A stretch of 59,594 bases of DNA from Candidatus Staskawiczbacteria bacterium (GTDB lineage: Bacteria > Patescibacteriota > Minisyncoccia > Minisyncoccales > Staskawiczbacteraceae). The notes beneath the pieces were generated by a model. That model did not search any database, was not told the origin of the DNA, and worked only from the letters and a program-made list of their open reading frames with translations. Every line of letters starts with the position of its first letter. Position 1 is the stretch's first letter. The DNA is taken from the NCBI GenBank assembly GCA_023245145.1, contig JAHFKW010000001.1, positions 75,823-135,416 of the forward strand, written 5' to 3'. A program made the position numbers and the translations under genes. Shown piece by piece: positions 3,429-49,663 of the stretch.

Positions 3429-3469
3429 AAAAAAAAGAGCCCAGCGAAAACATGTGTTTCGCTGGGGCT
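3429..3469 (-). terminator. Intrinsic terminator of the 3482-3742 orphan gene
   Basis: Stem cccagcgaaa/tttcgctggg followed by an 8-U tract on the minus strand. Confidence 0.8.
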
Positions 3470-3481
3470 GGAGATTGGCGC

Positions 3482-3742
3482 CTAGTGCGTAATGGTATTG
3501 GGCGGGTATCGAGAACTTCTTGGCGGTTCTGCCTTGCGTGGTTCAAGAAGTTTGGCAAAGGTTTTGACGTGGTGAAAGGTAGTGAAATACAAATCCCTAT
3601 CTCTCCATTTCATGTAGCCTTCGGCCTCCAGGTGCTCGATTGCCTTGATTCGACTCTCGAACTCGGTTGACCAAGGATCAACTGGGTAGTCCTCAAGATC
3701 CAATACTGAATCCTGATGCCAGTAAATCACGATAATAGCCAT
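3482..3742 (-). CDS. Hypothetical protein (solo cassette 1)
   Basis: 86-aa ORF; GAGGA 7 nt upstream of the ATG; own promoter-like sequence and terminator. Confidence 0.65.
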   Translation of the reverse strand: MAIIVIYWHQDSVLDLEDYPVDPWSTEFESRIKAIEHLEAEGYMKWRDRDLYFTTFHHVKTFAKLLEPRKAEPPRSSRYPPNTITH

Positions 3743-3749
3743 GATGAAA

Positions 3750-3808
3750 TCCTCGAAAGAACAAAATTGTCACAAGTTTTGATTATCATATCAAGATTGC
3801 AATGTCAA
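3750..3808 (-). promoter_or_regulatory. Promoter-like sequence, boxA-like TGTTCTTT and SD of cassette 1
   Basis: Minus strand: TTGACA (3803-3808), TATGATAAT (3782-3790), TGTTCTTT (3756-3763), GAGGA (3750-3754). The -35/-10 spacing is non-canonical. Confidence 0.55.
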
Positions 3809-3831
3809 TGATTTCGCGGTACTATTCATCA

Positions 3832-3924
3832 ATGCAAATCTATTCTGAAAACCCTCCTTCGCTAAAGCTTCGGCAGGGCACAGCAAAAAAGTCACAACAT
3901 GACACAAATTTACTCAGAAAATAA
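3832..3924 (+). pseudogene. Duplicated, repeat-interrupted 5' end of smpB (MQIYSEN...)
   Basis: ATG 3832 encodes MQIYSEN, matching SmpB MTQIYSEN at 3899; it continues through a palindromic repeat and stops out of frame at 3924. Confidence 0.6.
3852..3880. repeat. Short GC-rich palindromic repeat (ccttcgctaaagcttcggcaggg family)
   Basis: Similar copies at 16684-16713 and, reversed, at 45862-45888. Confidence 0.75.
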
Positions 3925-4363
3925 GAAGGCATTGTATGACTATGAAATCCTGGAAAAGTACGAAGCCGGGCTGGTTTTGATTGGGCAAGAAGTAAAGTCT
4001 ATAAGGGGCGGGAAAATGCAGTTGGCAGGAAGTTATGTAATAATTGGCGCCGGGCACAATGCTGCGCCCGGCAGCTCACAGCTTGTGGGCGCAAAAATCC
4101 CGGCCTATCAGCCCTTAAACGCTCCGCAGGGCTATAATCCCGAAAAAATACGTAAGCTCTTGTTAAGCAAAAAAGAGCTGAATTATTTGGCCGGAAAAGT
4201 AAATGAACGCGGATTTTCCTTAATCCCCTTGAAAGTTTATGATAATAATGGTAGGATTAAACTCGAATTTGGACTGGCCAAAGGAAAGAAGGCTTTCAAC
4301 AAAAAAGAGAAGATAAAAAAGCGAGATGTTGAGCGTGATATCCAAAGGCAACTAAGTTCTTAA
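3899..4363 (+). CDS. smpB: SsrA-binding protein
   Basis: ENKKALYDYEILEKYEAGLVLIGQEVKSIR, RKLLL, LAKGKK; directly upstream of tmRNA. Confidence 0.97.
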   Translation: MTQIYSENKKALYDYEILEKYEAGLVLIGQEVKSIRGGKMQLAGSYVIIGAGHNAAPGSSQLVGAKIPAYQPLNAPQGYNPEKIRKLLLSKKELNYLAGKVNERGFSLIPLKVYDNNGRIKLEFGLAKGKKAFNKKEKIKKRDVERDIQRQLSS

Positions 4364-4729
4364 GGGAGTGATTGTTTCGACAAGCATTCAGCTTAAAATA
4401 AGCAAATCCAGTATTCTGGAACCTGGTAAAACTTCTAGAAAACCATAATTGCAAAAAATGTATTCGCCAACTTGTTTGGCAGTCAGCAACCAGCTTTAGC
4501 TTACGCTTAGCCGGCATCATTACTATCAACTCCTGATAGGTAGATAATGGTGTTATATTATCAGGATAGATTATGTTGTTCCCTTCAATATAATTAAAAC
4601 CTAAAGGGATTAAGATGTTGCTCTTTTGCCTGGCTTTTAAGGCAACATTCTAAAAATAAAACAGGATATATTTGTAGAATTATTTTAGGAACGTGTTTGG
4701 ACGCGATTTCAATATCGCCACTTCCACCA
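4364..4729 (+). ncRNA. ssrA: tmRNA
   Basis: 5' GGGAGTG pairs with 3' CACTTCC-A-CCA with a G3:U pair; T-arm gcgat-ttcaat-atcgc; tag frame 4451-4510 reads AKNVFANLFGSQQPALAYA-stop. Confidence 0.93.
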
Positions 4730-4734
4730 TATTA

Positions 4735-5319: not shown

Positions 5320-5321
5320 CC

Positions 5322-11373: not shown

Positions 11374-11408
11374 AAAAAAATGCCGGTTTCCACTTCGAGG
11401 AAACCGGC
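11374..11408 (-). terminator. Intrinsic terminator of the STAS gene
   Basis: gccggtttcc / ggaaaccggc stem followed by a 7-U tract. Confidence 0.85.
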
Positions 11409-11412
11409 CAAC

Positions 11413-11784
11413 TCACTTTGCAAACTCCGCGAGCGCAGTTTGTTCGTCTTTTTGGATGTCGAACAGTCTGTTGAGCTTGGTGATTTCGAACACCTCGTAG
11501 ATATCATCGTTGATGGAGCACATGACCAATTTACCTCCCCCCTTGTCTTGGACTTTTTTGTTTAGAACAACCAACTTGTTAAGGAAAGCTGCGTTCATGA
11601 ACTCAACGCTACCAAAGTTAAGCAGGATCTTTTTGCGATCGTACTGATCGACGAGACTGAACAGGTCTTCGCCGATCTCTGTGATGGTCTCCTTATCCAG
11701 GATTTTTTTGTTGAGGAAGCTGACGATGGTGATTTCGCCGTTATCCTCAACTTTGAAACGACTTTTACGGGCCATTGTGAACAT
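11413..11784 (-). CDS. STAS-domain anti-sigma-factor antagonist-like protein (solo cassette 2)
   Basis: KILLNFGSVEFMNAAFLNKLVVL...GGKLVMCSINDDIYEVFEITKLNRLF; GGAGG 5 nt before ATG 11784 (alternative ATG 11775). Confidence 0.88.
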   Translation of the reverse strand: MFTMARKSRFKVEDNGEITIVSFLNKKILDKETITEIGEDLFSLVDQYDRKKILLNFGSVEFMNAAFLNKLVVLNKKVQDKGGGKLVMCSINDDIYEVFEITKLNRLFDIQKDEQTALAEFAK

Positions 11785-11845
11785 AACTTCCTCCAAGTTT
11801 CTGGTGAGTGGGTTTGCAACACAAAGAACAACTATCACAACCACA

Positions 11846-13069: not shown

Positions 13070-13102
13070 AAAAAAAAGCTGATTCCCGGTCAGAATCAGC
13101 TT
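13070..13102 (-). terminator. Intrinsic terminator of cassette 3
   Basis: aagctgattc / gaatcagctt stem plus U tract. Confidence 0.8.
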
Positions 13103-13124
13103 GAGTGCCACATAACCAACCGCT

Positions 13125-13568
13125 TTACGGTTTAGCGCCACAGTAATCAATGTACTGGCGAAAAGCATTTTCCACTGCACTAACTCCGGCACTATATAAA
13201 TCGAGCCCTACCCCCTCTGATATACGAGGTTCAATACAGTGCAAAACCTTAACCAATACACAAACGTATTGTTGCACATTTTGTTCTTGAAAAGACGAGA
13301 TAGTGGCGTCTCGAATACATGGAAACGCTGGAAGCAGGCCTTTTTTAACGGCCCCGAACAAGCAATGTACAAAACTGAGAGACGGCAAGGTGAGACCTGG
13401 AACCGAAATCTTAATTCTTTTTTTCTTTTTTCGGCCGGCAATTTTCAACTCTACCGTCATTGAAAACCGAGACCGGCAAGTAATCCTGCTACCACGCACA
13501 TGACTAGTGGCGGTAGTAACAGAAAAATTCACCTCTTTAATCTCAAAACAAAACAGTTGTGATTTCAT
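13125..13568 (-). CDS. Hypothetical protein (solo cassette 3)
   Basis: 147-aa ORF; AAGGAA 6 nt upstream, AGCTCTTT at 13593-13600, TGcTATAAT at 13616-13624, own terminator. Confidence 0.6.
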   Translation of the reverse strand: MKSQLFCFEIKEVNFSVTTATSHVRGSRITCRSRFSMTVELKIAGRKKKKRIKISVPGLTLPSLSFVHCLFGAVKKGLLPAFPCIRDATISSFQEQNVQQYVCVLVKVLHCIEPRISEGVGLDLYSAGVSAVENAFRQYIDYCGAKP

Positions 13569-13675
13569 CGCCTATTCCTTTCGCAATAGAGAAAAGAGCT
13601 GTCGCAAATAACATTATTATAGCATTATGCAAAAGTAAAGGAGAGACATCTCTTGATTCAATACCCATAAATCTA

Positions 13676-14397: not shown

Positions 14398-14429
14398 AAA
14401 AAAAAGCTGACGTGGGCGATACGTCAGCT
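14398..14429 (-). terminator. Intrinsic terminator of cassette 4
   Basis: agctgacgt / acgtcagct stem plus U tract. Confidence 0.8.
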
Positions 14430-14775
14430 ATAAAGGTTCGTGAAGAGAGCGTGTACCGGTTGACTCTACAATCACCAACGCAGATTCTTTCATCATCAGG
14501 CGAGGGTGCCGGTAGGGATGACAATGCTTATTGGTCCATTCCAGTTGCATGTCCCTCAACAAGAGAATGTTCCCGTTGGGCATACGCAACGCCACGTTCT
14601 GAAACAAATTGTGCTTTTTGTCGCACAGCAACGAGAATTGGAATCGGTAGTAACAACCACCATAGTACAACTCTACGATCTCGTCTTCATACGCCGGACG
14701 CGAACAGCAATACACCCCCTCGTAGGTGTATTTACGCTGATACTCATTCCTTTGATGATCTAAAGGGCCAACCAT
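14428..14775 (-). CDS. Hypothetical protein (solo cassette 4)
   Basis: 115-aa ORF; GAAAGGAG 7 nt upstream of the ATG; terminator at the stop codon. Confidence 0.6.
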   Translation of the reverse strand: MVGPLDHQRNEYQRKYTYEGVYCCSRPAYEDEIVELYYGGCYYRFQFSLLCDKKHNLFQNVALRMPNGNILLLRDMQLEWTNKHCHPYRHPRLMMKESALVIVESTGTRSLHEPL

Positions 14776-14822
14776 AGCGAATCTCCTTTCGTGTAGGTAA
14801 GAAAAACTTCACTCACTATAAA

Positions 14823-20800: not shown

Positions 20801-21175
20801 CTCACCAGTACCTTTGTCAATAATCACCTCTCCTGTATCGGGGTCTCTTTTTTCACCTACAATTATTAATTTAGCCTCTTCAAAATCTGAGACTGCTTTT
20901 GCTAAATCAGATAAACTTTCCGCATGATAAACACTTCTCGCATCCTTGTCTTTAATAAGGTCATAGGCACTATGCACTTCTTGAAGTTTTATAGCAGCTT
21001 GGACATCCCCCGTATTTCTATCAGGAGCGTATTGTCCCTTCAAATTTCTAGCCGCTTTGTCTATCTCGTCCTGCGAAGCACGATTAGGAACTCCCAGTAT
21101 TTCGTAGGGGTTTCCAGACTGTGCTCTTTCTTGGGGTATTGGTAATTGATCGAGTTTTGGACCATTATCAGACAT
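17873..21175 (-). CDS. Large coiled-coil protein with N-terminal J-like domain and a HExxH motif
   Basis: NPYEILGV...YAPDRN...AYDLIKD (J-domain pattern, HPD replaced by APD); KHENSH with a downstream DEFIA; E/K-rich coiled coils. Confidence 0.8.
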   Translation of the reverse strand: MSDNGPKLDQLPIPQERAQSGNPYEILGVPNRASQDEIDKAARNLKGQYAPDRNTGDVQAAIKLQEVHSAYDLIKDKDARSVYHAESLSDLAKAVSDFEEAKLIIVGEKRDPDTGEVIIDKGTGESVKEEADVRQDVSNLIDMMLDSGSTFSLDKHPAISLEDFDKEFENSWARYPDYSGWHTKLHNLLLEEYRKRNLIKEDSAKIDTKLVLDPNSITQVTVVENPPIMDMKKLASKPEVVVAAPAVGAGPGKVAEIPMTFDFERMEKDLEKEQKEIDELKSKLAEKPEDALTSGSKVAKRSLEETFARTQEEADVENYLPDDVRQYQNLLADRERYERLLASAEERGSGKATKKLIKSYEAQIEALDYKIEVIERSVRWAKEDYLNSPEDYEDRIKKLNVSVKKAQAEEDQTSVDRLLGQIDRLEEKVSPSWWKKTTDFAMKWTGLKAVSGALKWCARRAPVLTSVLSVGLALPHAIKELNARYEHDEREMPRWAEKIDEASKKFTGPTGKRHVKRTVETVPATKKPEAEPAKEVRVSWNEKFKEIIEKNSPEQLEGALVPEKKAIRQEALADCRGMVNEMIEHYATSNLNDIINKLEQVIKQFDKTYAFDEDQKSILLKHIGRYKIEKEKAMVVFEKPRENNVELLNTISERNDFTEDEAKKVKISVGPWGLAVEVDDTDLANKITKKVGKKVLGGKGFTGGFSWMMVNKNQEVRKGKKDQSGKLTAKHENSHLQFGDRSRSKKLKAQELLNEYAENQNENEEGAKKYFTAKKEEALIRFADEFIAMAASNSLESLRVKVKLFFDPESLYNFVRGALASAAADVHSKIAKEILVNEYRVKVEKSVIAMYNLIEFFQKKGWDEKGAINKTRMLLSNECNSADEWPTLVEGFLEAKGIKKEVNEKKKSKVKTPLEVVREDLGRARKELAKMPSGLGFNPDKGSKRAIKNSEVKKLERKERELLRGEIEMKEAMLASTTDESEKKKLEAEIDRLGAQLFLAGVGGESLIEKRNRDAKIKKLKNEGVEPVTRPEIAPWGNVFKKQFNFEDSTEEVINILNNMPKLAQLQTYGMLGLYKDLASREQLEGAIEKQREEFKNSKK

Positions 21176-21258
21176 AGATATAAATTTAATAATAGATATT
21201 ATTTAATCTTATCATTTTACTATTATAAATAGCAATATGCCCAAATAAAATTACATAC

Positions 21259-21304
21259 AAAAAGGCGCTGCAACACTTCACAACAAGTGAAGGTGCAACG
21301 CCTT
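21259..21304 (-). terminator. Probable terminator of cassette 5
   Basis: aaggcg...cgcctt imperfect stem with an inner cactt/aagtg hairpin and a 5-U tract. Confidence 0.55.
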
Positions 21305-21360
21305 GATTCGCTAGACAGACCCGACAACAGAAAGAACTGGGCTATAGGTTTAGTATTGGG

Positions 21361-22446
21361 CTAATCTGAATTGCCGACGCGAACTTCTTGTTCGCGATTA
21401 GCAGCTTTGACCGCCCGGCGGATCAGGTGCCAAAAGGTTTGGAGCTTGCCAAGGTACTCCTCGGCAAGTTCCTCCGACAGACCCATGTCCCGCCTGATGG
21501 CCTTGACGACCTTCGGGAAACTTTCGCCACGCCCGGGAACGTAGCGAGCATTGACCTCTCCCAAGGTCAAACGCATCTTCTTTCCCAGAGCATAGTCACG
21601 CCACCTGGTGAAGGGTGCGCCTCCCACGCCATCGATGAGCGAAACCTTGCCACCGACACTTTCGACGAGGACCTGCCCACCGAACCGCCAGTGGGTCGTT
21701 TCCTTACTGTCGTTGTCCTTGCGACGGACCACCTCCTTGTCAACATTCAGGTAACATCTTCCTGGAACACCGTCACGCAACTGATCAAGCGTGATGGTCC
21801 CCTGGGCTTGAAGCTCCCTTGAACGACGATTCCATTCGTCTTGCATTCTTTGACTAAAAGCGGCAGCGATTCGCCGGATTTCGTCATCCTCACTGCGCTC
21901 CATTGTCGCGCAGTTGATGCACTTGAGGTGCTCATATCCGATGAGAATCGCCTCCGGGTCATCACTCTTGGCGTGCTCCATCAAGCCCCGCGACCGCAAT
22001 TGGTAAGCGGCGCGATGGTAGTCCTCCAGTGACCGGCAGGTCTTTTGGAGAAAAAACTTGATGAGGGTCGCCGCGATGGCGGTGCGAAAGATGGGGTCGG
22101 ACTCGGCGTAGCATTCCTTCAAGAACGCATAAACCTTGTCAGTCTCCGTCTTTAACTCCTTCATCAAGAGCCGACGCTCATCGGGTGTACCCAGGCGATC
22201 CATCTCCTCTTCCACGTCCCGTTCCCACCCGAGGGCTTTGAGGAGATTCACCTTGAGCTGTTTGATCTTGGCAAGCTGTTGTTCAACAACCGCCCGAGTC
22301 TGGTCCATACCCCTGACCTCAACCTTTTGGGGCGAGGTCAAGTCCAACGTGGCAGCATTCTGCCGGAGCCTTTCGGGCGCCGGAAGAAGCTTGGGCATGG
22401 GGGTGACACGTAATCTCTTCATCATTTTTTCGAACTCACTCTGCAT
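21361..22446 (-). CDS. GC-rich hypothetical protein (solo cassette 5)
   Basis: 361-aa ORF; GGGAGGGAG 6 nt upstream; 38 of 60 bases are G/C in line 21601-21660. Confidence 0.8.
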   Translation of the reverse strand: MQSEFEKMMKRLRVTPMPKLLPAPERLRQNAATLDLTSPQKVEVRGMDQTRAVVEQQLAKIKQLKVNLLKALGWERDVEEEMDRLGTPDERRLLMKELKTETDKVYAFLKECYAESDPIFRTAIAATLIKFFLQKTCRSLEDYHRAAYQLRSRGLMEHAKSDDPEAILIGYEHLKCINCATMERSEDDEIRRIAAAFSQRMQDEWNRRSRELQAQGTITLDQLRDGVPGRCYLNVDKEVVRRKDNDSKETTHWRFGGQVLVESVGGKVSLIDGVGGAPFTRWRDYALGKKMRLTLGEVNARYVPGRGESFPKVVKAIRRDMGLSEELAEEYLGKLQTFWHLIRRAVKAANREQEVRVGNSD

Positions 22447-22506
22447 GTTTTGCTCCCTCCCAGAGCTAAGGTCCGTGTAGCGAATTGGTATAAGGTTCTA
22501 ATATCT

Positions 22507-22535
22507 ATTCTAGCACTAACAAAGAAGCTTGTCAA
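22507..22535 (-). promoter_or_regulatory. Near-consensus sigma70 promoter of cassette 5
   Basis: TTGACA-N17-TAGAAT with an extended TG. Confidence 0.75.
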
Positions 22536-26184: not shown

Positions 26185-26212
26185 ATTTGCATTGTAGCAT
26201 TTTTTTGCAAAC

Positions 26213-26242
26213 AAAAAAGACCTTGTAGCACGTACTACAAGG
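26213..26242 (-). terminator. Intrinsic terminator of cassette 6
   Basis: ccttgtag / ctacaagg stem plus U tract. Confidence 0.7.
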
Positions 26243-26262
26243 CCCCGCGATATTGGGTGTAA

Positions 26263-26466
26263 TTAAACCGCAAAAACTCTTTTTTGTGGAATACCCTTGG
26301 CACAGACTATTGACCACGCCTCCTCACTGGGCATGCTCGTTTTCACGAACACTGTTGGCATCCTTGTGCAACTCGAAAGAGAAATGCCTGCCATTCCTCC
26401 AAGAGCATTCATGACTATAGCAATATGATTCATGTCATCGCATTCAATCCCAATCGTCGTAAGCAC
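26263..26466 (-). CDS. Hypothetical 67-aa protein (solo cassette 6)
   Basis: GGAGGA 7 nt upstream of GTG 26466; own terminator. Confidence 0.55.
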   Translation of the reverse strand: MLTTIGIECDDMNHIAIVMNALGGMAGISLSSCTRMPTVFVKTSMPSEEAWSIVCAKGIPQKRVFAV

Positions 26467-26518
26467 AGAATATTCCTCCAAAAAAAGAATGAGCGAATCG
26501 TTATTTATGGTAACTATA

Positions 26519-26977
26519 TTACAAATTTAAGCCTATGTCAATAGAGCGTTTATTCTCTTCCAAATGCCCAAAATTTATATTAACAGCATGCTTGGGTATT
26601 AAATCTGAAATTTTTTCCGGCCATTCAATAGCTACGATATTTTGTGGATCAGCAATTATTTCCTTAAAACCTAAATATAAAATATCTTCCGGATTTTCCA
26701 GGCGATAACAATCAAAGTGGTAAAAAAACCGAAAATTGCGAGATGTCGGAGATCTCGCAATGCTAAACTTTTTCATAATCACAAACGTGGGACTGTTCAC
26801 CGTTTCATCAATACCTAGTCCGCGGGCGAAACCTTGTAAAAATGTGGTTTTACCGGCGCCCAGGTCACCGCTTAAAGCCAAAACCACGGCTGAACCAGCC
26901 GTTTTTTGCCGCAAAATTTGCTTTGCAAATTTTGCGGCCATCTTTTGAGTTTCTTGTGCATTACGTGTAATTGACAT
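26519..26977 (-). CDS. tsaE: tRNA t6A biosynthesis ATPase TsaE
   Basis: LSGDLGAGKTTF, VNSPTF, HFDCYRL, IEWPE. Confidence 0.95.
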   Translation of the reverse strand: MSITRNAQETQKMAAKFAKQILRQKTAGSAVVLALSGDLGAGKTTFLQGFARGLGIDETVNSPTFVIMKKFSIARSPTSRNFRFFYHFDCYRLENPEDILYLGFKEIIADPQNIVAIEWPEKISDLIPKHAVNINFGHLEENKRSIDIGLNL

Positions 26978-40616: not shown

Positions 40617-42224
40617 TTAGGGGCAAATTTCATCAGCCTTACCGGGCATGGGGATGATATACATATCATAAACCTTTCTACTATTATTAAAAATCCATCT
40701 ATTGGCAGTGTTTGCCTGTCCAAAGTTATTTTGTTGGCAAGTGTATTGTTGACAGACCTCTTTTTCCCAATTAGTTTCATTGCCTCCGTACAAAATAACG
40801 CGATAAGAGCCAGCTTCTCTTTCAATTGATTTTAAACAGGTGTCACTATCAGAGCACTCATCTTCTCCAGGAATTGCATTTTGGGGGTTTGGGTTGCCCT
40901 GTTCTTTTATCCATTTATTAACGTTTCCATAATAATTTGCGGGTAAATGATAAGCGCGACCACCTGGTTCAAAATCTCCAGCATCTATTTTTGTAAAGAG
41001 ATTTTCACTATAAAAACTTATTGATCCCTTAATAGGGGTTGGTGTATGTTTAAATACGTCTGCATAGCGCGTATTAAATGGTTCGCCACTTCCAGCAACA
41101 TCAATATTGTGTTTGGTTTCACTAATAATATTATTTCCCGTCGGTAAGTCTTTATTAAAATAGGGGTAACTACATTCTTGTATTGGCAGGTCGCTGACGG
41201 ATTCATTTAAAACAACCCCATACTGTTTTTCTTGGCTATTTACAATACGCATAGAAACTGGATATTCATCATCACTACCCATTTGAGATGATACTTGAAA
41301 AGGTTCTATGCTCCCCGGATCAGTATAAACATCAGAGCTAATGCCCATGGGGTTGATCCCTAATTGAGTTTGAGCCACTGGTTTTAAATAAAAGTATACT
41401 CCCGGCTCTTCGTAGGCCCATTTGTAAGATTTTGCACCTTGTAGTGACAGAACATTTGTGGGGCTCTCGTTGCATGGCAGAGAGAAAGTATTAACATAGG
41501 GTCCGCCATTTAGATCTGCATCTATTGTAAAACCGGTTGATCTATATACCCAAACTAAAAGATTGGCGCCCTTATTGCCATTAGCGGGTGGCGTACATTT
41601 ATATCTGATTTGGTAGTAGGCTCCATCGCTAATAAATATTCTTTCTAATTGATTGTAGGTACGACGGCCAGGTAGCGGAGCTTCCATATTTGAAACACTT
41701 TTAGGGGCCTCATAGTCACTCTTAAAAAAAGTGTTGTAGTTTAATATTGGTCCAAGTGGGGGGGGTATATTAAATATTTCACTACTATTATCCCACTTAA
41801 ATTTAGTATATATAGTGTCAAGAAAAACCTTACCTCCTCCTTGTTGCGGTAGAGCCGTAAGATTTAAACTAGTTAGTTGGGGGTTGATGTTTTGCAGAAT
41901 AATAAAAGAAGCAAAAAGGAGTGCAATGCCAAGTACCGACCCGGTAAATCGCTCTTTGGCTTCTCCCAAAGCCTGGGGACTGCCTCCGTAGGCCAATATT
42001 TGTACGCCAGAAATAACCAAAGATATAATTGCCACAATGCCCGAAAGCGCCACTGCCAGAGCAAAAAAATATTCTATATATTGAATAAAGGTTGAACTTG
42101 AAGTAATGGAGTATCCGCCAATGTTTGGGTATGTCACCTCAAGCGCTAGTACAGGTGCAGTGGCAGGCAAAAGAACGGCTAGGCCGATAAAAAATAATGC
42201 TAAATAAATATATCGTTTGCGCAT
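40617..42224 (-). CDS. Pilin-like (TrbC/VirB2-type N-terminus) protein with large C-terminal domain
   Basis: Signal peptide, two TM helices with G..AKERF..GIALLFASFIILQNINPQL, then a Cys-containing soluble domain. Confidence 0.7.
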   Translation of the reverse strand: MRKRYIYLALFFIGLAVLLPATAPVLALEVTYPNIGGYSITSSSTFIQYIEYFFALAVALSGIVAIISLVISGVQILAYGGSPQALGEAKERFTGSVLGIALLFASFIILQNINPQLTSLNLTALPQQGGGKVFLDTIYTKFKWDNSSEIFNIPPPLGPILNYNTFFKSDYEAPKSVSNMEAPLPGRRTYNQLERIFISDGAYYQIRYKCTPPANGNKGANLLVWVYRSTGFTIDADLNGGPYVNTFSLPCNESPTNVLSLQGAKSYKWAYEEPGVYFYLKPVAQTQLGINPMGISSDVYTDPGSIEPFQVSSQMGSDDEYPVSMRIVNSQEKQYGVVLNESVSDLPIQECSYPYFNKDLPTGNNIISETKHNIDVAGSGEPFNTRYADVFKHTPTPIKGSISFYSENLFTKIDAGDFEPGGRAYHLPANYYGNVNKWIKEQGNPNPQNAIPGEDECSDSDTCLKSIEREAGSYRVILYGGNETNWEKEVCQQYTCQQNNFGQANTANRWIFNNSRKVYDMYIIPMPGKADEICP

Positions 42225-42236
42225 GGGTTTATTATA

Positions 42237-42743
42237 CTATTTTTTTAGCTCGCGTAAAACAAACCGCACATTAGGAAAAGTGAATAACACCACATAGTCT
42301 CCAATCCACGGGATGCCCTGCAAAATATAGCTATATGGTAGTTTCTTGATGATTTTTTTTAATGCATCCTCTTTTGATGTTCCCAGTGCTTTTAAGCTTT
42401 TCTTTGGGTCTCGTATTTTGGAATTTTTGCTAGTTGGTCTTTCTGTCCAATGGTCCGGGGCGGTGCTTTTTGTATCTCCAACTCCTTCCTCCTCTCTTTT
42501 TATTTGTTCGCGTATGCCTCTTTTTCTAAAGTATGCCCAACCGCCAATAATCAGCCAAGAAGCCCAGGCGGCAGTTCCGTAATCGCTAAACCCCCACCAA
42601 GCCCCTAGCAGTGCAATAATAGCCATAAGAATATCAAACATAAATCCAATGGGTAGCATTAAAACTGCTTCCACGCCCATAAAATTAACATCTTTAAACA
42701 TTGGCCATTCGCCTTCTGGCTTCTTTAATTTTTTCCACTTCAC
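42237..42743 (-). CDS. Hypothetical membrane protein of the secretion cluster
   Basis: Hydrophobic segments and an IPWIG motif; true start may be downstream (MFKDV). Confidence 0.65.
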   Translation of the reverse strand: MKWKKLKKPEGEWPMFKDVNFMGVEAVLMLPIGFMFDILMAIIALLGAWWGFSDYGTAAWASWLIIGGWAYFRKRGIREQIKREEEGVGDTKSTAPDHWTERPTSKNSKIRDPKKSLKALGTSKEDALKKIIKKLPYSYILQGIPWIGDYVVLFTFPNVRFVLRELKK

Positions 42744-44487
42744 CCGGGGCGGTGGTAATAATTTGATCTTCGGTGTAGCTGGCTTTTACACTCATAAACA
42801 CATGCTTTTTACCCGCAAAAAATAATCCTTCTCCCACCGATGCCTCCAAGAGCAAACCTTTTTCTTGTTCGGTTAAGTCAAATGTTTTTTGTAGCACCTC
42901 CATGGCCGCCGGAGATTGTTTAAGTAATAGTTGCAGTGAAGAGTTGGTGATGATGGCCTTGCCATAAGAGGATCTCATAAAATCTTCCACATCTTGAGTA
43001 ATAGTGGTTACGCCCAGCCAATATTTTCGGCCTCGCTTTATCAAGCCAAACAAAAACGAAGCCCCATCTTCCGATTGCATCAGCCACCAAGCTTCGTCCA
43101 CCACTAAAATTCTCTTTTTGACCTTTGTCCTGACAATATTCCAGACATATCGCATTACAATAAACAAAGCAATGGGCTTGAGTGACTCTTCCATGTCGCG
43201 AATACCAAAAACAATAAAACTTTTATTGACAGTAATATTGGATTTCTGGTTGAAAAATCCGGCAAAGGTGCCTTGGGTGAATTTTTTTAAACGACGAGCC
43301 AGCGATTCGGCTCCAGTCATGTTTTCTAAGATTTGGGCAAAGTCCGACATAATCGGTATATTTTCTTGCCAGTTAGCAGGATCGGAAGTTGGCGTAATAT
43401 CACGGATAGCATAGGTTTCTGTTAGGGCTTGGTCTAAAATACTATCTTCTTCCGGGCTGACTCCGCCCAACATAATTCTTAATAAACCCACCAAGTTAAT
43501 GATGTTTGACCGCAGAACATCTTCGGGGTTTTCGTCGGGTCCGGGAACGGGTAGGTCAAAGGGGTTAACGTGATTATCAGAAGAAAGTGATATGTTGAAA
43601 AAATCCCCTCCCACGCTGTTGGCTAAAAATTCATATTCATTTTCAGGGTCAATCACAATCACTTCAACTCCCCACATTAAGTAGCGTAAAATTTCCAGTT
43701 TAATGGCGTAACTTTTTCCCGAACCCGATTTGGCAAACACCACCATGTTGGAATTTTCTAAGGTAAATCGGTCAAACAACACCAATGAATTATTATGGCC
43801 ATTGATGCCGTATAAAATACCCTCGTTACTGCTTAAATCAAATGAGATAAATGGAAAAGTGGTGCTTAGTGGTTCAGTGTCCATGGGTACGTGAACATTC
43901 AGTAAATCCAGACCGTAGGGGCTGGTGGAAATAAAGCCCTCTCGCTGTTTAAATAGCGATGGTTTTATGTAAATTAATCTGGATTCAAAAATGGAACGCA
44001 GAGTGGTTTCGGTTTCTTTCATGGCTTCGGCGGTTTTTTGGTAAACGGTGATGTATAAGCCAAACCGGAACATTTTCTCTTGCGCCGTGATAATTTTGTC
44101 TCGCAGGTTCTCAATATCTTGGTAACCGGTTTCCAATGCCGGGTCGCGAATAAGCCCTTTTTCTTGGCGTTCTATTAATTCAGAAGAAACTTGGGTAATT
44201 TTTGAGCGTAATTTTTTTAAAATCAGGGCGTTGTCAACCGGGTGCACAAAAAATGAAATATCCATAGGGACATTCAAATTGATAGCCGGAGAAAGCCAGC
44301 CGGTGTTTAAATATCTTGGGTAAGAAAATATGAAAAAAGATTTGGCAATTTTGTCTCCCAATTTAATGTTGTCTTGAGTAATGCCAATATAGGGCGGGGC
44401 AATAATATCTTTAATGTCCAGCGTTTCTTCTTGGAAAGTATTGCCTTCTTGCAATAATGGATCTTTCTTTTTAAAAAAATTAAACAT
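42694..44487 (-). CDS. VirB4-like ATPase
   Basis: Walker A AKSGSGKS, IDPENEY, VNPFDL, Walker B VVDEAW, KRGRKY, ITQD. Confidence 0.92.
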   Translation of the reverse strand: MFNFFKKKDPLLQEGNTFQEETLDIKDIIAPPYIGITQDNIKLGDKIAKSFFIFSYPRYLNTGWLSPAINLNVPMDISFFVHPVDNALILKKLRSKITQVSSELIERQEKGLIRDPALETGYQDIENLRDKIITAQEKMFRFGLYITVYQKTAEAMKETETTLRSIFESRLIYIKPSLFKQREGFISTSPYGLDLLNVHVPMDTEPLSTTFPFISFDLSSNEGILYGINGHNNSLVLFDRFTLENSNMVVFAKSGSGKSYAIKLEILRYLMWGVEVIVIDPENEYEFLANSVGGDFFNISLSSDNHVNPFDLPVPGPDENPEDVLRSNIINLVGLLRIMLGGVSPEEDSILDQALTETYAIRDITPTSDPANWQENIPIMSDFAQILENMTGAESLARRLKKFTQGTFAGFFNQKSNITVNKSFIVFGIRDMEESLKPIALFIVMRYVWNIVRTKVKKRILVVDEAWWLMQSEDGASFLFGLIKRGRKYWLGVTTITQDVEDFMRSSYGKAIITNSSLQLLLKQSPAAMEVLQKTFDLTEQEKGLLLEASVGEGLFFAGKKHVFMSVKASYTEDQIITTAPGEVEKIKEARRRMANV

Positions 44488-44500
44488 ACCGTTACATTTA

Positions 44501-45127
44501 TTATTTTAGTAATTCTGGTAAAATTTCCGGATAATACCCCTGCTCCGCTTCTGATGGATGGTGCAATGACCAGTATAGTTCAATTAGTTCAGGCGTGGTT
44601 AAAGGAATAACATCAAGGCCACAGCGCTTTAGCCCCATGGCTAAAAATTCCAGGCGTTGCCAGAGCTGGTTTTTACATTTTTCAAAATCTTCATCACCGA
44701 TCGGCTGATTTTTACCCATCAATCCCTTGCCTACCCCCAAAATTTCGGTGAGCGTATAGGGTACTACCACATAAAAACTTTTAGTCATGACCGAGTCGCC
44801 CGCCACCAAATTTTTAATAAAATCATGGTAAGAGGCAGTTTGGGTTTTTAATAGTTCGTTGGTTTGATTTTCTTCCAACTTTTTAATGGTGTCCAAATAC
44901 GGGGTAATGTTAATATTGCGTGATTGAATAATAATCTGGCAGGAAAAATCCAGTGAGTTTAAAAAACTTTGGAAGGCGTAAATAATGCTAGACTGCTCCT
45001 CGGAAGATTTTAGGGCAAAGTTTAAAGAAGACACCATTAAAACTCCGCGGATTCCGCCGTTTTTTAAAACCACAACTCCTTCGCGAATATTTTTTATTTC
45101 TAAAAATTCTTGGGTAGCACTGTCCAT
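44501..45127 (-). CDS. VirB4-associated (TraC/TraE N-terminal-like) protein
   Basis: NFALKSSEEQ..FQSFLNSLDF..QIIIQSR; lies between PrgI and VirB4. Confidence 0.75.
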   Translation of the reverse strand: MDSATQEFLEIKNIREGVVVLKNGGIRGVLMVSSLNFALKSSEEQSSIIYAFQSFLNSLDFSCQIIIQSRNINITPYLDTIKKLEENQTNELLKTQTASYHDFIKNLVAGDSVMTKSFYVVVPYTLTEILGVGKGLMGKNQPIGDEDFEKCKNQLWQRLEFLAMGLKRCGLDVIPLTTPELIELYWSLHHPSEAEQGYYPEILPELLK

Positions 45128-45141
45128 AGTTGTTAATTTAT

Positions 45142-45220
45142 AATTATTAATTTCTAATTTCTATTAAATTTCTAATGATTGAATATTTAATGAAAATTTA
45201 AAATTATAAATTGAAAATTG
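45142..45220. repeat. AT-rich heptamer-repeat hairpin
   Basis: aatttctaatttctattaaat...atttaatgaaaatttaaaattataaattgaaaatt; related copy at 45658-45776. Confidence 0.65.
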
Positions 45221-45227
45221 GTAGGAA

Positions 45228-45647
45228 TTACTTTTTGGTATCCACTAGTTTTTGTATTCCTCTTAATTTGCTAGGTTGCATAGCAAGCGTCATGGGCTTT
45301 ACTGTCTGCTCTTCTTTTTCTGGAATTGGCACCTGGCTTTTTTCTTTAAATGAGTAATTAAATTCCTTTTTCTTCCAGGTGTAGGTTTTGGTGCGTAAGG
45401 CAAATCCAGCCATATTGAGTGCAAATGTTAATGCCGAATAATTACCAATTTTCAAAAATGCGATTATTCCGGACAACATTGCCACGAAAATTACGCTGGC
45501 AATAAAAAGAGGCGTCCATGGAATAGTCCAATACAGTACAATAATGGCGCCACCCCCGCCCACTAGAATAAAAAATTGGCGATACGTTAAAAAGTATATA
45601 ATTTTTCCTTCTTCTTCAATAAATTGTGGCACAGGATATTGCGACAT
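45228..45647 (-). CDS. PrgI-family membrane protein
   Basis: MSQYPVPQFIEEEGKII..LTYRQF, two TM helices, YTWKK. Confidence 0.85.
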   Translation of the reverse strand: MSQYPVPQFIEEEGKIIYFLTYRQFFILVGGGGAIIVLYWTIPWTPLFIASVIFVAMLSGIIAFLKIGNYSALTFALNMAGFALRTKTYTWKKKEFNYSFKEKSQVPIPEKEEQTVKPMTLAMQPSKLRGIQKLVDTKK

Positions 45648-45657
45648 ATACTTAATC

Positions 45658-45776
45658 AATTTCTAATTTTCAATTTCTAATTTCTATTAAATGTCTCAAT
45701 GGCTAATTTCTAAACGGGTTTGAAAATTCAAATATTAAACATTTAATGAAAATTAGAAATTAGAAATTGAAAATTA
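45658..45776. repeat. AT-rich heptamer-repeat hairpin
   Basis: (aatttct)n ... (aaattag)n imperfect inverted arms. Confidence 0.7.
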
Positions 45777-46361
45777 CTCCAACTGTTCTTTATACGGATC
45801 TGGCTCGGAGCGTTTGGAGGCATCGGGAGTTTGTGGAATAACAGTACGGGCCTTTTGTTGTGGCTCGCCGGAGCCTTGGCGAAGGCGGTTTCCTTCTGCT
45901 TTTTGCATATTAGCTGCATTATCCTCCACATCCGGAATCTCAATCTTTTTGCTGTAAGGCAATTTGGGGGCAGGAGTAGGAGGGGCTACGGGCACGGGTT
46001 TTATCGCTAATTCCTTTTCTGGCTCTGGCGTTGAGCGGTAACTTTTTAATTCCTCTTCAGTATAGGTTTTCAGCAAAGGAATTAAATCGTTTACAATATC
46101 TGTTGCAAGACTTTTAGTTACCTCTTTTGAAGTTTTTAGTTCTTTGTGCAGAGCGTCAAGAAATTCATGGTTGGATATTTTTTCCGTCATTAAATTTCTT
46201 GTAATTTGAATTACAATATTTTCGTTAAATATTTTATATGCATGGATTTTTTTTATTGCTTCTTCGTCAGTTTCTTTTAGTTTATATTTTTCAATAATCC
46301 GTCGCAATTCAAGCTCGGATTTTTCGTTAAGGGGGATGATTTTATCTTTTTCTTTGGCCAT
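45774..46361 (-). CDS. Hypothetical protein of the secretion cluster
   Basis: Helical N-terminus, Pro-rich linker, C-terminal DPYKE; carries a repeat insertion at 45862-45888. Confidence 0.7.
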   Translation of the reverse strand: MAKEKDKIIPLNEKSELELRRIIEKYKLKETDEEAIKKIHAYKIFNENIVIQITRNLMTEKISNHEFLDALHKELKTSKEVTKSLATDIVNDLIPLLKTYTEEELKSYRSTPEPEKELAIKPVPVAPPTPAPKLPYSKKIEIPDVEDNAANMQKAEGNRLRQGSGEPQQKARTVIPQTPDASKRSEPDPYKEQLE

Positions 46362-46379
46362 AAATATATTAATTAAAAT

Positions 46380-49199
46380 TTAAGGAATTCTACCGATTGC
46401 ATTATAAATATTGAGTAGTTTTTCATACTTTTGGTATTCCGAATTTGCTCTCGCTTGATTGCCTCCTGGCCTCGACTCCCTTTGAGAATTATTGTAAGCG
46501 TCAGTTAGTTCGTTAAGTAATATTGGATTTGTTGGTGCTGCGCCACCCATTGAAATGAACGCCCTAAGTTCTCTTTTATGGTCAGCTGAGGCACTGTTAA
46601 ATACGGCGATTTTTTCGGGGGTGAATTTTCTAATTCTTTCGTAGGTAAGACGCGTGTGATTAATATTTCTAAGCTGATCGTCGGGCATCCTGCCAATGTT
46701 TTCATCAGTAGCCTGTTCTATTGCCATATCTCTAATCATGTTTTCGTAAGCAGCCGGTGCCATGCCAGTAGTATTCGGATTTGCCGCCTCAAGTCTTTGT
46801 ATCCTTGCGGGATTGTACTGGGCAAGGTTAGAGTCTGCTCTGTCGAGTTTTTCAGGAGAAATACCACTTTCTTGTGCCATAGTAAAGGATATTTGTTTAT
46901 TATCTCCAGTTACTCCTGCTGGCATAAATCCAGATGCTTCTAGCGCATGTGAATTATTAATAAGATCAAGGTCCCCGTTGTCCATAAGTGAGCCAGTGGC
47001 TTTGCCCACCACCTCTCTTACTAGATTTGGATTTATGGCATGTAGTCGTTCAAGTAGAGAGTTTGGTGTATTTGCATTATTAATAATATCAGCTTTGTCG
47101 GCGCTGTTTAGCTTGTCTACGGCACTTGGGAGGTTTAATCCATTAACTGCTCCCAATACCAATCCATCTATCCTCTCTCCATATGTAAGTAAATCTTGTT
47201 GTTTTTTGTCGAGTATGGCTTTATATATCTTAGTTTGGTCAGCAGGATTAAATAGTCCACTTCTGAATGCATCTCTTAGCTGTTCGCCGCTTGATGCATT
47301 GACAATATCGGTGATGTCAGATCCTCGGTTACGCATTTCTATCATAGCATTTGAAAGTTGAGTTGATGATAGTCGGTTAAGTTGATTGATGGCTTTTAGT
47401 CTCTTTAATGCCTCCTCTCTTGCTTTACCATTGCCTCTGTTGCCTTGGACGATAAATGCCGCGTCTTCGCCGTTCATGGCGCCTGCCAACTCATCCCAAG
47501 AGCCACCCTGTGCAGCAGATTGTTCTGCTAGAGCAACTCTTTCTCCTGTGTTTAATACTGTTCCATTAGTTAAGGTATTAAGCCAGCCTTTTTTGAGTCC
47601 GACTTGAATGTCCGCCGCTCTTTGAGCTTTCGCAGAGTCACTCATTGGTGTAGAGGAAATAGAGGCTTCAATTTGTTCTCTGGTTCTATTTTCCGATAAC
47701 GCCTTAGCATCGGCAGTGGCTTTCTTTCGGCGCTCTCTTTCGGCCATATCTGCGGTACCCACTTCATCCGCACCAAACACACCAGATTGTTCCATGGCTC
47801 TGTCGCCAAGAGTTCCGGCGTATCTGCCTGCTTCAATAGCTCTTCCGCCAATTCTTTTTATGACATCCTTGGCTTGTACCGCAGTCTGGACTCCTTGTTG
47901 TGCACCAGCTGTTGCACCAGCCGAAATTGATCCACCCGTGCGCCAGGCTTGCCAAGCCCCTTTTACACCACCCACTGCTCCAGCCAAACCTCCGGCTGTA
48001 TATTTGGCACCAATAACAGTTCCTGCCCCAGCCAACTTACCACTCCACTTTCCCGTAGCAAGGCTCATTTTTTTTCCAAGCCCCGTTGCATAGCTTGCTC
48101 CCATGGCCGAAGTTTGGAGAGAAGCGAGGAAACCACCAATTAACAGTATAGTTGGCACAAAGTACTGCATTGGATTAATCTGATTAGGGTTTGGGGTCGC
48201 TGCTACTATGGCACTAGTCATGGCGTTTGCTAGGTAAATGGAAAAGGCTCCTGGGATTCCTATAATACACCACTGAATAAAGTTATCTTTCCACATGTTC
48301 CAAAATTTTTGCCCTGCCGGGAATACGGCGAACACAAATGCTAGGGGAGAAAGTATAACAAATATCCATAGGGCAATAAATCTAAAAATAAATAAGAAAA
48401 AATACAAAATAAAAATCATGGTGGCCACAATATTGTATATGGCAATCGTGGCTACCAGGCTAAACGTATTTACGGGGTTCGGTGCGTTAATTGCAAAGCC
48501 ATTGCGCGCAATATCGGCTACTGCGTTAATTGAATTAGTGAACTGACTACCAAATATATCGGCATTATTACCAGCATTGATAAATGTATACATGACTGTG
48601 TTTGATATATCAATAAACACGCCACAAATAACCAGTGAGAAATTTATTAAAAGTGCCGAAATAATCAGTTTAGGTAAGATTTGTTTGGCCTGCCAGCCAT
48701 CTGGCCAACGCAAAATAGTAGCCAATGCGGTGGCAATAAGTCCAAGTACCACGAAGATATTGGCAAAATCTCTGACAATCGGCCAACCGACTGCAATGAT
48801 TTGATTGGCTTCGGGCCCGTTAATGCGTGTATAGGAAGCCCCTATAACGTAGCCTCCCACAGTCGCAGGAAGAGACATAACTCCCCTAAGAAGTTCATGA
48901 GCCATAGTTGCGAAACTTCCCGTTAGTAAAATAATAATGCTTCCAATTGCTATTATTAATGCATTAAGTGTCGATTGTACTGTACTAGCCACCACTTCAC
49001 TTGTACTTGGAATAAAATGACCGGTCACACATCCTAAAACTCCCCCAAGGCAACCCCAGTTTATTATGCTAGCATGCGTAGTGCTGGGCATTATTATTCC
49101 AAATAACAATACGCAATAAAAAACAACTAAGACCGCTCTTTTGTCTTTAATAGTAAATCTGCAGATTTTAAATATTTTAAACATGAATTGTAAATTCAT
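46380..49199 (-). CDS. VirB6/TrbL-like polytopic membrane protein with long C-terminal extension
   Basis: GWPIVRDFAN, LPKLIISALLINFSL..IDISN, RFIALW..ILSPLAF..WNMW, then a Gly/Ala-rich segment and a helical tail. Confidence 0.75.
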   Translation of the reverse strand: MNLQFMFKIFKICRFTIKDKRAVLVVFYCVLLFGIIMPSTTHASIINWGCLGGVLGCVTGHFIPSTSEVVASTVQSTLNALIIAIGSIIILLTGSFATMAHELLRGVMSLPATVGGYVIGASYTRINGPEANQIIAVGWPIVRDFANIFVVLGLIATALATILRWPDGWQAKQILPKLIISALLINFSLVICGVFIDISNTVMYTFINAGNNADIFGSQFTNSINAVADIARNGFAINAPNPVNTFSLVATIAIYNIVATMIFILYFFLFIFRFIALWIFVILSPLAFVFAVFPAGQKFWNMWKDNFIQWCIIGIPGAFSIYLANAMTSAIVAATPNPNQINPMQYFVPTILLIGGFLASLQTSAMGASYATGLGKKMSLATGKWSGKLAGAGTVIGAKYTAGGLAGAVGGVKGAWQAWRTGGSISAGATAGAQQGVQTAVQAKDVIKRIGGRAIEAGRYAGTLGDRAMEQSGVFGADEVGTADMAERERRKKATADAKALSENRTREQIEASISSTPMSDSAKAQRAADIQVGLKKGWLNTLTNGTVLNTGERVALAEQSAAQGGSWDELAGAMNGEDAAFIVQGNRGNGKAREEALKRLKAINQLNRLSSTQLSNAMIEMRNRGSDITDIVNASSGEQLRDAFRSGLFNPADQTKIYKAILDKKQQDLLTYGERIDGLVLGAVNGLNLPSAVDKLNSADKADIINNANTPNSLLERLHAINPNLVREVVGKATGSLMDNGDLDLINNSHALEASGFMPAGVTGDNKQISFTMAQESGISPEKLDRADSNLAQYNPARIQRLEAANPNTTGMAPAAYENMIRDMAIEQATDENIGRMPDDQLRNINHTRLTYERIRKFTPEKIAVFNSASADHKRELRAFISMGGAAPTNPILLNELTDAYNNSQRESRPGGNQARANSEYQKYEKLLNIYNAIGRIP

Positions 49200-49237
49200 T
49201 AACTATAGCATAAATTTATTCATCAATGATTAACAAG

Positions 49238-49246
49238 TTATCCACA
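49238..49246 (+). promoter_or_regulatory. Perfect DnaA box upstream of the secretion cluster
   Basis: TTATCCACA about 30 bp upstream of TGcTATAGT (49202-49210, minus strand). Confidence 0.5.
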
Positions 49247-49258
49247 ATATATTATATG

Positions 49259-49288
49259 AAAAAACCCCCAGAGCGCGATGCTTGGGGG
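49259..49288 (-). terminator. Intrinsic terminator of cassette 7
   Basis: ccccca...tggggg stem plus 6-U tract. Confidence 0.7.
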
Positions 49289-49318
49289 CTTGTTTTTTTT
49301 GGGGCGGGGTGGTGGGTA

Positions 49319-49567
49319 CTACCTGTACCCCATATTTTTCGCTGCCTTTTCTGAAATGGGATCCAGAATGGCGCCCTTTCTGATCGTTTCTTTCTCTGTC
49401 TCTCGCCCAGCGGCTGTGCTTTTGACTTCCTGCCATCTGACATAGCCGGCGTAGCCGACTCCACAGACGACAGTCATTGCAAAAATAGCGAGCGTAATGA
49501 CTGCAAACGCAATCAGGATCGGGTTAAGTGCCGGCTTGGCATGGTTCGATTTAGTTGCGATGGACAT
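49319..49567 (-). CDS. Single-TM hypothetical protein (solo cassette 7)
   Basis: 82 aa with one TM helix; GGAG 7 nt upstream; GTTCGTTGACA boxA-like motif at 49608-49618. Confidence 0.65.
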   Translation of the reverse strand: MSIATKSNHAKPALNPILIAFAVITLAIFAMTVVCGVGYAGYVRWQEVKSTAAGRETEKETIRKGAILDPISEKAAKNMGYR

Positions 49568-49663
49568 GAGTTTGCTCCGAAAAAAGAAAAAATTTGGTTG
49601 TTTATACTGTCAACGAACGGGCGAACCAAGCTAAAATTTACGCAATTTTAGCCTATACCTTAA

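Follow-up and report, generated by a model that had tools for sequence, protein, structure and literature searches.

Shine–Dalgarno-led single-gene cassettes in a Patescibacterium without an anti-Shine–Dalgarno sequence: a gene class possibly formatted for the ribosomes of a host bacterium

Agrobacterium T-DNA comprises bacterial genes that are formatted for the expression machinery of another cell and that feed the parasite. It is one block delimited by borders, is processed by a relaxase and is destined for the plant nucleus. Phage morons, host-takeover early genes and auxiliary metabolic genes are small, fast-evolving monocistronic units with their own promoter, Shine–Dalgarno sequence (SD) and terminator. 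Here we describe seven single-gene cassettes on the minus strand of a 59,594-nt stretch of a Candidatus Staskawiczbacteria bacterium (GCA_023245145.1, contig JAHFKW010000001.1, positions 75,823 to 135,416; hereafter the window). As in T-DNA, the cassette expression signals match the putative host rather than the carrier, and a type IV secretion system (T4SS) is present. The cassettes differ from T-DNA in being dispersed single-gene units among core genes, without borders, and in that the proposed recipient is a bacterium. With the phage genes they share host-derived regulators and single steps of nucleotide or lipid pathways; however, they lie in the chromosome of a ribosome-bearing cell, and the seven have no att site, integrase or PHROG match. 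The cassettes are best read as a payload translated by the ribosomes of a host bacterium and not by their own cell, a reading to which we give a probability of roughly 0.55 from sequence evidence.

The loss of the anti-SD itself is already published. The anti-SD detection rate was 48% in Parcubacteria, with CCTCCT lost at the 16S rRNA 3′ end (Tsurumaki et al. 2022, PMC9297842), and the same loss is seen here. In the accessible text of that paper SD helices are expected not to form and no SD-led class is described, whereas about a tenth of the genes are SD-led and under selection in the present genome. According to the available portion of a study of Bacteroidetes (PMC7797042), most genes likewise start without an SD, but the anti-SD is kept and sequestered, while here it is deleted from the gene. 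Our literature search, with subscription journals and bioRxiv supplements outside its scope, returned reports of anti-SD loss and none of SD-led genes in anti-SD-less Patescibacteria. New here are the donor lineage, the retention of SDs against the decay of G+C content at third codon positions (GC3), the missing partners, two prospective tests and the boxA-plus-stem architecture.

The window genome (G000; other G numbers denote related genomes and L numbers are locus labels) is 625,768 bp in 14 contigs and is rated 99% complete; like other Patescibacteria, the bacterium is host-dependent. The window proteins showed a Patescibacterium-type gene content in Pfam, and the named relatives of two cassette proteins were Candidatus Staskawiczbacteria. 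The 16S 3′ end reads GGATCATTTTTTT, in which the CCTCC that follows helix 45 is lost. The anti-SD was absent from all 25 same-order 16S tails, namely 22 from 12 congeners and 10 members of other families, plus three more; 4 of 27 pattern matches had been excluded from the tail set as non-16S. Only one 16S was found in G007 (single contig, 660,000 of 661,750 bases covered). All 21 Planctomycete tails read GGATCACCTCCTTT, and the anti-SD is retained in Gemmataceae. Family f81 (L268, L269), inside the same class as the window genome, has tails with ATCTCCTTT, a variant, near-intact anti-SD. The 16S match of G000 (C9:328-1349, L002) spans 1,022 nt for 327 model positions, which implies an insertion or intron of about 700 nt.

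The resident genes are written in another format. Core orthologs with an SD energy of −5.5 kcal/mol or lower numbered 14 of 285, whereas 17.8% of internal ATGs reached this level, and only one of the 40 ATG-started resident genes of the window reaches a −5.5 kcal/mol duplex with the canonical anti-SD. That single gene carries a RhuM/Fic domain (756-1742, minus strand). The −10 boxes of residents peak 6–8 nt upstream of the ATG, whereas those of cassettes mostly lie 36–60 nt upstream. Residents thus look leaderless, as had been noticed for many of them in the original prediction. Resident start regions are A-rich and G-poor; cassette start regions show the reverse, with a G peak 7–12 nt upstream of the start. 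The original prediction had also set the cassettes apart as a separate gene class. This view held when the 16S 3′ end and the housekeeping genes were inspected, as CCUCC was absent and the core genes were depleted in SDs.

The class extends over the genome. Among 662 open reading frames (ORFs) of G000, an SD at the first ATG was present in 48 of the 162 with their own terminator and in 20 of the 500 without one (odds ratio 10, p = 1.5 × 10−17). The group with both signals contains about 60 genes, with a median length of 130 aa and a GC3 of 0.50 vs. 0.38. A repeat in G007 gave 35/172 vs. 22/539, and the association reached p < 0.05 in seven of nine partly read genomes, other families included (G173 was marginal and G050 negative). 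When no SD filter was applied, 56% of 196 orphan genes with terminators had an SD at the first ATG, compared with 17% in shuffles. In these genes GGAG occurred 77 times against 11 expected, and GAAG and AGAG were not enriched, which indicates a motif complementary to the missing tail (CCUCC) and not merely a G-rich one. The automatic cassette sets include some resident false positives, as the start was picked by the best SD; for this reason the main conclusions draw on tests that were unfiltered or used the first ATG. The seven cassettes belong to a separate, genome-wide class of stand-alone SD-led genes, and the SD class was found in nearly all genomes read. SD strength varies by lineage (median −11.8 in G054, −7.8 in G000 and G007 together), as different hosts or donors would produce. 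In the G054 cassettes (L173-L184) the AAAGGAGG sites are very strong, GC3 is low and one lipobox is clear, which suggests a different, low-GC host.

The seven minus-strand ORFs of the window were recovered as first described. Each has a sigma-70-type promoter, a 35–60 nt leader, an SD 5–7 nt upstream of the start (duplex energies of −5.8 to −11.3 kcal/mol with the canonical anti-SD) and its own hairpin and U-tract terminator (7/7; −12.7 to −26.3 kcal/mol, U-tract 22–97 nt past the stop). Cassette 1 (3430..3808) occupies the argS|smpB slot and carries an 86-aa orphan ORF (3482-3742), with a −35 box at 3803-3808, a −10 box at 3782-3787, boxA-like TGTTCTTT at 3756-3763, SD GAGGA at 3750-3754 and a terminator at 3430-3466. 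This slot held an SD cassette with unalignable cargo in all four genomes compared. Cassette 3 (13070..13624) encodes a 147-aa orphan (13125-13568), with a TG-extended −10 box at 13616-13624, AGCTCTTT at 13593-13600, SD AAGGAA at 13575-13580 and a terminator at 13070-13102. Its syntenic ortholog was found solely in G007 among 59 family genomes, is 31–32% identical and has a different, stronger SD; five of six single-nucleotide differences between strains were non-synonymous, at low depth. Cassette 4 (14398..14822) has a 115-aa orphan ORF (14428-14775) with no match in Pfam or PHROG, a −10-like box at 14815-14820, SD GAAAGGAG at 14783-14790 and a terminator (14398-14429) that overlaps the stop. 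Cassette 6 (26212..26541) has a 67-aa orphan ORF with a GTG start (26263-26466), −35 and −10 boxes at 26536-26541 and 26516-26521, SD GGAGGA at 26474-26479 and a terminator at 26212-26244; its slot holds another SD cassette in G010. Cassette 7 (49259..49668) encodes 82 aa with one hydrophobic segment (49319-49567), with −10 candidates at 49645-49668, GTTCGTTGACA at 49608-49618, SD GGAG at 49575-49578 and a terminator at 49259-49290; an unrelated SD cassette occupies its slot in G007.

Cassettes 1–6 are joined to their neighbours, at even depth, by contigs from three sequencing runs of a single study (X1, possibly the source, X3 and X4), so the suspicion of assembly chimeras was not borne out. 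Cassette 6 is bridged by an X4 contig. Among RNA runs, none was listed as containing this DNA, a result with no bearing on expression. An X3 contig departs from the reference inside the cassette-6 terminator (window position 26219), with different letters, which suggests a strain variant of this terminator or slot. Some SD cassettes of G000 begin shortly past the 3′ end of a same-strand tRNA (C6:15212, C8:60022, C9:83529 and C12:~1445; L007-L046), and a STAS gene of G006 likewise starts behind a tRNA gene; such cassettes may be released by tRNA processing.

Relatives were compared to see whether the signals are maintained. The ratio of non-synonymous to synonymous substitution rates (dN/dS) was 0.12–0.23 in five cassette pairs, including tandem paralogs inside G010 and G015, and both syntenic orthologs and in-genome tandem paralogs kept open frames and SDs. 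The cassette-2 leader retains GTTCTTTGTGT in G007 despite saturated synonymous sites, and the boxA and SD stretch of cassette 1 is nearly identical there although the ORFs are unalignable. Cassette 2 (11374..11839) encodes a 123-aa Gemmataceae-type STAS anti-sigma-factor antagonist (11413-11784; Pfam STAS), with boxA-like TGTTCTTTG at 11822-11830, SD GGAGG at 11790-11794 and a terminator at 11374-11408. STAS homologs were found in 14 of 24 congeners; an SD is retained in 13 of 15 copies. In these copies GC3 falls with identity to the donors (rho 0.84, p = 8 × 10−5), and SD strength does not track donor identity (rho −0.32, p = 0.25). A prediction set beforehand concerned pyrF: all seven congener copies over the cut-off were SD-led, six of them at the first ATG. 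The csrA copies read in relatives were all SD-led (−6.1 to −14.1). The cassette SD therefore appears to be maintained and not a relic. The proposal that cassettes were acquired with signals intact and then left alone is contradicted as a general account by SDs that stay conserved where synonymous sites have become saturated, the purifying selection and the native cassette-5 family described below.

Because frame and SD are both conserved, an SD reader must make the cassette proteins, and a host ribosome would be the simplest such reader. The rival that survives best places this reader inside the symbiont, either as 30S subunits or rRNA that the symbiont acquires from the host when feeding or as an adaptor, protein or RNA, that recognises GGAG and brings in the anti-SD-less ribosome, with the products used there or secreted by the T4SS. 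It accounts equally well for SD conservation and purifying selection, and it requires no nucleic-acid export. G000 also has a csrA cassette of Planctomycete type (C8:66214-66366, minus strand; L142) with an SD, a leader of about 70 nt and a terminator, and CsrA is presumably GGA-binding. CsrA was rejected as the general SD reader, since it was over the cut-off in just 8 of the 151 genomes of the order, and nearly every genome read has the SD class. G000 has no GATCACCTCC copy, the TCACCTCC/ACCTCCTT sites of G000 and G007 have no obvious common element (by eye), and the cell's own U-rich tail pairs weakly (mean −2.6). In addition, acyl carrier protein (ACP), STAS and lipoprotein cargo lacks partners in the symbiont, and the high GC3 of a native cassette family is unexpected for expression in an AT-rich cell. 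We consider a reader inside the symbiont unlikely, although it has to be taken seriously.

The partner genes were compared between four symbiont genomes and a Gemmataceae genome. RsbW-type kinases over the cut-off numbered 0/4 in the symbionts vs. 7 in the Gemmataceae genome, AcpS 0/4 vs. 2 and Lgt 0/4 vs. 1. A ketoacyl synthase was present in 1 of 25 congeners. The best matches of the cassette-2 STAS protein were 67% Planctomycetota and 66% Gemmataceae. It has Ala at a site where 56 of 57 donor-type rows have Ser, and other copies vary there. We take this conserved Ser to be the phospho-acceptor, as in RsbV/SpoIIAA. The Ser-to-Ala change and the lack of an RsbW-type kinase over the cut-off lead us to predict that the protein acts as a non-phosphorylatable decoy and not as a normal member. 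Other recognisable cargo of G000 includes sigma-70 region 4, two helix-turn-helix (HTH) proteins, a receiver domain, a second STAS, a lone ClpC-type N-domain, NUDIX, a phosphoribosyltransferase and a kinase-like P-loop protein. After 18 of 110 cassettes from relatives were dropped prior to the Pfam scan, 20 of 92 had a Pfam match and 72 had no known family. The matches include two ACPs, a PgsA-like enzyme, orotate phosphoribosyltransferase, dihydroorotate dehydrogenase, thymidylate kinase (TMK), a glutamine amidotransferase, a lipoyl ligase and B12 radical-SAM enzymes. Archaeal-histone matches over the cut-off occurred in 2 of 400 genomes (L196 in G169 and L197 in G097), where the neighbouring genes are also mostly SD-led. 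These loci are probably mis-binned archaeal or mobile DNA; they are uninformative on RNA export to archaeal hosts, which bacterial promoters ahead of archaeal-type genes would favour, because their surroundings resemble foreign contigs or elements.

A second rival is a revolving pool of recent captures from hosts, phages and mobile elements, whose signals evolved in SD-reading cells and lie idle here. Fast turnover among congeners fits it, as do the amelioration of GC3 with divergence, a few broken copies and the presence of ComEC. It also agrees with the at least three STAS origins that are forced by well-supported branches; in a quick tree that gave long-branch warnings, the STAS copies are nested among Gemmataceae-type proteins, with branch lengths mostly of 0.45–3.2 vs. 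a median of 0.07. Against it, orthologs and tandem paralogs keep frames, SDs and a dN/dS of about 0.2. Two donor STAS genes inspected by eye have no AT-rich promoter and no nearby U-tract terminator. None of the seven window cassettes matched PHROG, and core genes flank all of them; over 69 cassettes, PHROG matches were limited to generic domains, in 6/69. The STAS and cassette-5 proteins had no match in IMG/VR scans, which are sensitive to close relatives only. As first noted, integrases, transposases and att-like repeats were absent from the window: no integrase or transposase family was found among its 63 proteins (Pfam; integrases were not scanned genome-wide and attC was not modelled specifically), and no direct repeat longer than 10 nt flanks the cassettes (longest 8–10 nt), nor do border repeats surround these dispersed units.

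The cassette-5 family is a further objection to a capture pool, as it is class-wide, is absent from 121 Planctomycetia and keeps both its SD and a covarying stem; we regard such a pool as improbable. Cassette 5 (21258..22535) carries a 361-aa ORF (21361-22446), with −35 and −10 boxes at 22530-22535 and 22507-22512, SD GGGAGGGAG at 22453-22461 and a terminator at 21258-21302. A word-indexed search with the protein returned only the self-match, and an exhaustive search gave 62 representatives, mostly 21–34% identical. The family was found in 30 of 78 family genomes and in 19 further genomes among 300 of the class, and it is old and native to Patescibacteria. Its GC3 of 0.50–0.88 is above that of the flanks, which a relic model fails to explain in a native family. 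As predicted beforehand, an SD preceded the gene in 20 of 27 loci, in 15 of them at the first ATG, after 3 of 30 loci were dropped as fragments or for want of a whole ORF. Most members have 460–500 aa; the window protein lacks about 100 aa of this length at its C-terminus, with trailer and stem intact. Its AlphaFold2 model has a pLDDT of 92, with no Foldseek match in PDB or BFVD at E ≤ 0.001 and no Pfam family. In VIA-align, Z scores of up to 8.4 were confined to the N-terminal three-helix bundle, an arrangement that is common, with the rest of the protein barely compared.

In many cassette-5 loci the predicted transcript begins 6 nt past TATAAT with AGTTCTT-like letters, and an arm after this +1 motif is complementary to a stretch just before the terminator. 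In the window, the boxA-like element lies at 22487-22499 (minus strand), at the predicted +1. The arms at 22470..22485 (5′) and 21306..21321 (3′, directly before the terminator hairpin) pair in the minimum free energy structure of the whole 1250-nt transcript, a predicted long-range RNA stem that would close it. One more locus had no terminator, which left 26 for the stem test. The mean energy was −21.7 kcal/mol for own arms vs. −16.7 kcal/mol for swapped arms, and none of 100,000 permutations was as low. The arm sequences differ among loci, and the best duplex lies right behind the +1 motif in 17/26 (by eye). In L258, which belongs to another family, the stem has 18 bp and its sequence is unrelated. 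By prediction, a boxA-like motif opens the cassette-5 transcript and a covarying 5′–3′ stem closes it, as in pre-rRNA. In the rrn leader, as the accessible part of PMC4807359 presents it, boxA is combined with the 16S processing stem; the cassette-5 motif likewise directly precedes the 5′ arm, which pairs with the 3′ arm so that the two enclose the gene. The cassette-5 loop differs in being an SD-bearing protein ORF with the motif at the predicted +1.

The last rival takes the G-rich motif for a tag of self-silencing or RNA handling, its SD likeness being inherited, by which messages that are toxic or stage-specific would be kept away from the A-preferring ribosomes of the symbiont. It agrees with the opposite base composition of resident and cassette starts but is very improbable, as the enrichment is specific to CCUCC-complementary words and not to G-richness, the G content peaks 7–12 nt before the start, the strength varies by lineage, and proteins under purifying selection must be made somewhere.

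The boxA-like element is a further feature of the class. Of 176 cassette leaders from 11 genomes, 25 contain the motif GYTCTTT, from a consensus that we take to be that of boxA, compared with 5 of the 823 upstream regions of residents; the shuffle mean was 1.4, and the reverse strand had one occurrence. A wider boxA pattern gave 44 vs. 18 (shuffle mean 6.4). The four boxA-like motifs quoted in the original prediction are present and the enrichment is real, but it concerns a minority of cassettes. The suggested check for nusB was positive. NusB is present, Rho is below the cut-off in G000 and RNase III is encoded; protection against Rho would thus not be required, and antitermination in this cell is an unlikely purpose of the boxA. 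No boxA was found in 21 Planctomycete spacers, and symbiont spacers carry a CTTTAAGAAAC element. The rrnB boxA has been described as an A/U-rich enhancer that cooperates with SDs in the accessible part of PMC2176067.

Several observations weigh against translation by a host. Cassettes are rarely shared: only about four have a cassette homolog between G000 and G007, a fast turnover that a capture-and-loss model also predicts. The pyrF of G016 has an internal stop, the STAS copy of G020 has switched to the resident format and that of G019 has a broken start. Of the G000 cassette proteins outside the window, 47/62 have no Pfam family; since most cargo has no known family, the missing-partner argument covers a minority of it. 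Lipoboxes are only slightly in excess (4/176 vs. 4/1945, with two clear cases), and a search for LspA came up empty even in the Gemmataceae control. The boxA-like motifs occur in just 14–25% of leaders. A general 5′–3′ stem was rejected, as own and swapped arms were equal in 154 other cassettes (−6.4/−6.7 in G000, −8.7/−8.9 in G007 and −7.2/−7.3 in others). Five of nine distant cassette-5 homologs lie in the family whose two 16S tails read keep ATCTCCTTT; because the near-intact anti-SD tail is kept, their SDs need no host. G588 is without the ATCTCCTTT tail and yet has an SD-led cassette-5 copy. Finally, the likely host, a Gemmataceae planctomycete, is named from the gene donors.

With these points counted, maintenance for host ribosomes, one of two options in the original prediction, is still the best-supported reading. 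The cassette SDs match the Gemmataceae-type tail of the putative host, which the carrier lacks, and the resident system is SD-free, with leaderless or A-rich starts. By comparison among genomes, the cargo has either been captured repeatedly from host-like donors or is lineage-native; it is swapped at fixed intergenic slots and remains under purifying selection with the SD kept. Natural competence, with recombination in the core genes on either side, may exchange the slots without an integrase. The symbiont RNA polymerase would yield separate monocistronic transcripts that the symbiont's ribosomes mostly pass over. The boxA-like element may serve as an S1-type enhancer, a Nus-loading site or both, and in the cassette-5 family boxA and the 5′–3′ stem could give an end-protected, pre-rRNA-like RNA. 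The RNA would enter the host at the contact site, for which the T4SS is one candidate route. In the host, the STAS, CsrA, receiver, HTH, sigma region 4 and ClpC-N products would alter regulation, and the PyrE/PyrF/PyrD, TMK, ACP and PgsA-like products would act on the supply of nucleotides and lipids.

Export of RNA is somewhat favoured over export of DNA because the units are dispersed, discrete and bounded by terminators, a few start behind tRNA genes, one family has paired ends and Patescibacteria T4SS clusters mostly lack a relaxase. In its most specific form, which we propose tentatively and at less than even odds, anti-SD-less Patescibacteria would have two address classes of message and would inject one of them as mRNA into their hosts. 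The SD would be a label for host translation, loss of the anti-SD would keep the payload off the symbiont's own ribosomes, and the cassette-5 boxA and stem would make an export-stable message.

The T4SS cluster (40617..49199, minus strand) is of the resident Patescibacteria type and lies near dnaA. A T4SS-pilin domain (40617-42224), a VirB4/TraG P-loop (42694-44487) and PrgI (45228-45659) were identified in Pfam. The VirB4-like part of the apparatus first described there was thus found at 40.6–45.7 kb, and the VirB6-like part had no match in Pfam. By their SD energies, the cluster genes are SD-less residents. Patescibacteria T4SS clusters are mostly without a relaxase (PMC12102498); the accessible portion of that report describes the same VirB4/PrgI/pilin cluster near dnaA and names no substrate, and an RNA or cassette substrate is only proposed here. 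Two large resident proteins are highly variable among congeners: one of 939 aa without a Pfam match (46380-49199, minus strand) and one of 1100 aa with an N-terminal DnaJ domain (17873-21175, minus strand). An AbiEii-like nucleotidyltransferase lies at 58077-58646 (minus strand). A tmRNA missed by ARAGORN was matched by Rfam at 4364-4729 (plus strand), directly 3′ of smpB. A tRNA-Ile with a TAT anticodon is present in G000 (C7:18230-18302) and in G007, and ARAGORN found one CAT tRNA in G000 and two in G007.

Patescibacteria make up a large share of bacterial diversity, and the cassettes bear on the means by which they manipulate their hosts and on the cargo of their relaxase-less T4SS. If the cassettes are read by the host, about a tenth of the genes would be in a format readable only by another species, which would be a new mode of bacterial parasitism. 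Genes or mRNAs would pass from one cellular prokaryote to another in a phage-like way, except that the donor has ribosomes, and such a system offers a reason for the loss of the anti-SD. A simple sequence rule gives lists of candidate effectors, mostly of unknown family, and a host prediction, here Gemmataceae; for any uncultured member, the host would then be predictable from sequence alone, by its SD style and captured genes. If the reader is instead inside the symbiont, SD reading without an anti-SD would be new translation biology.

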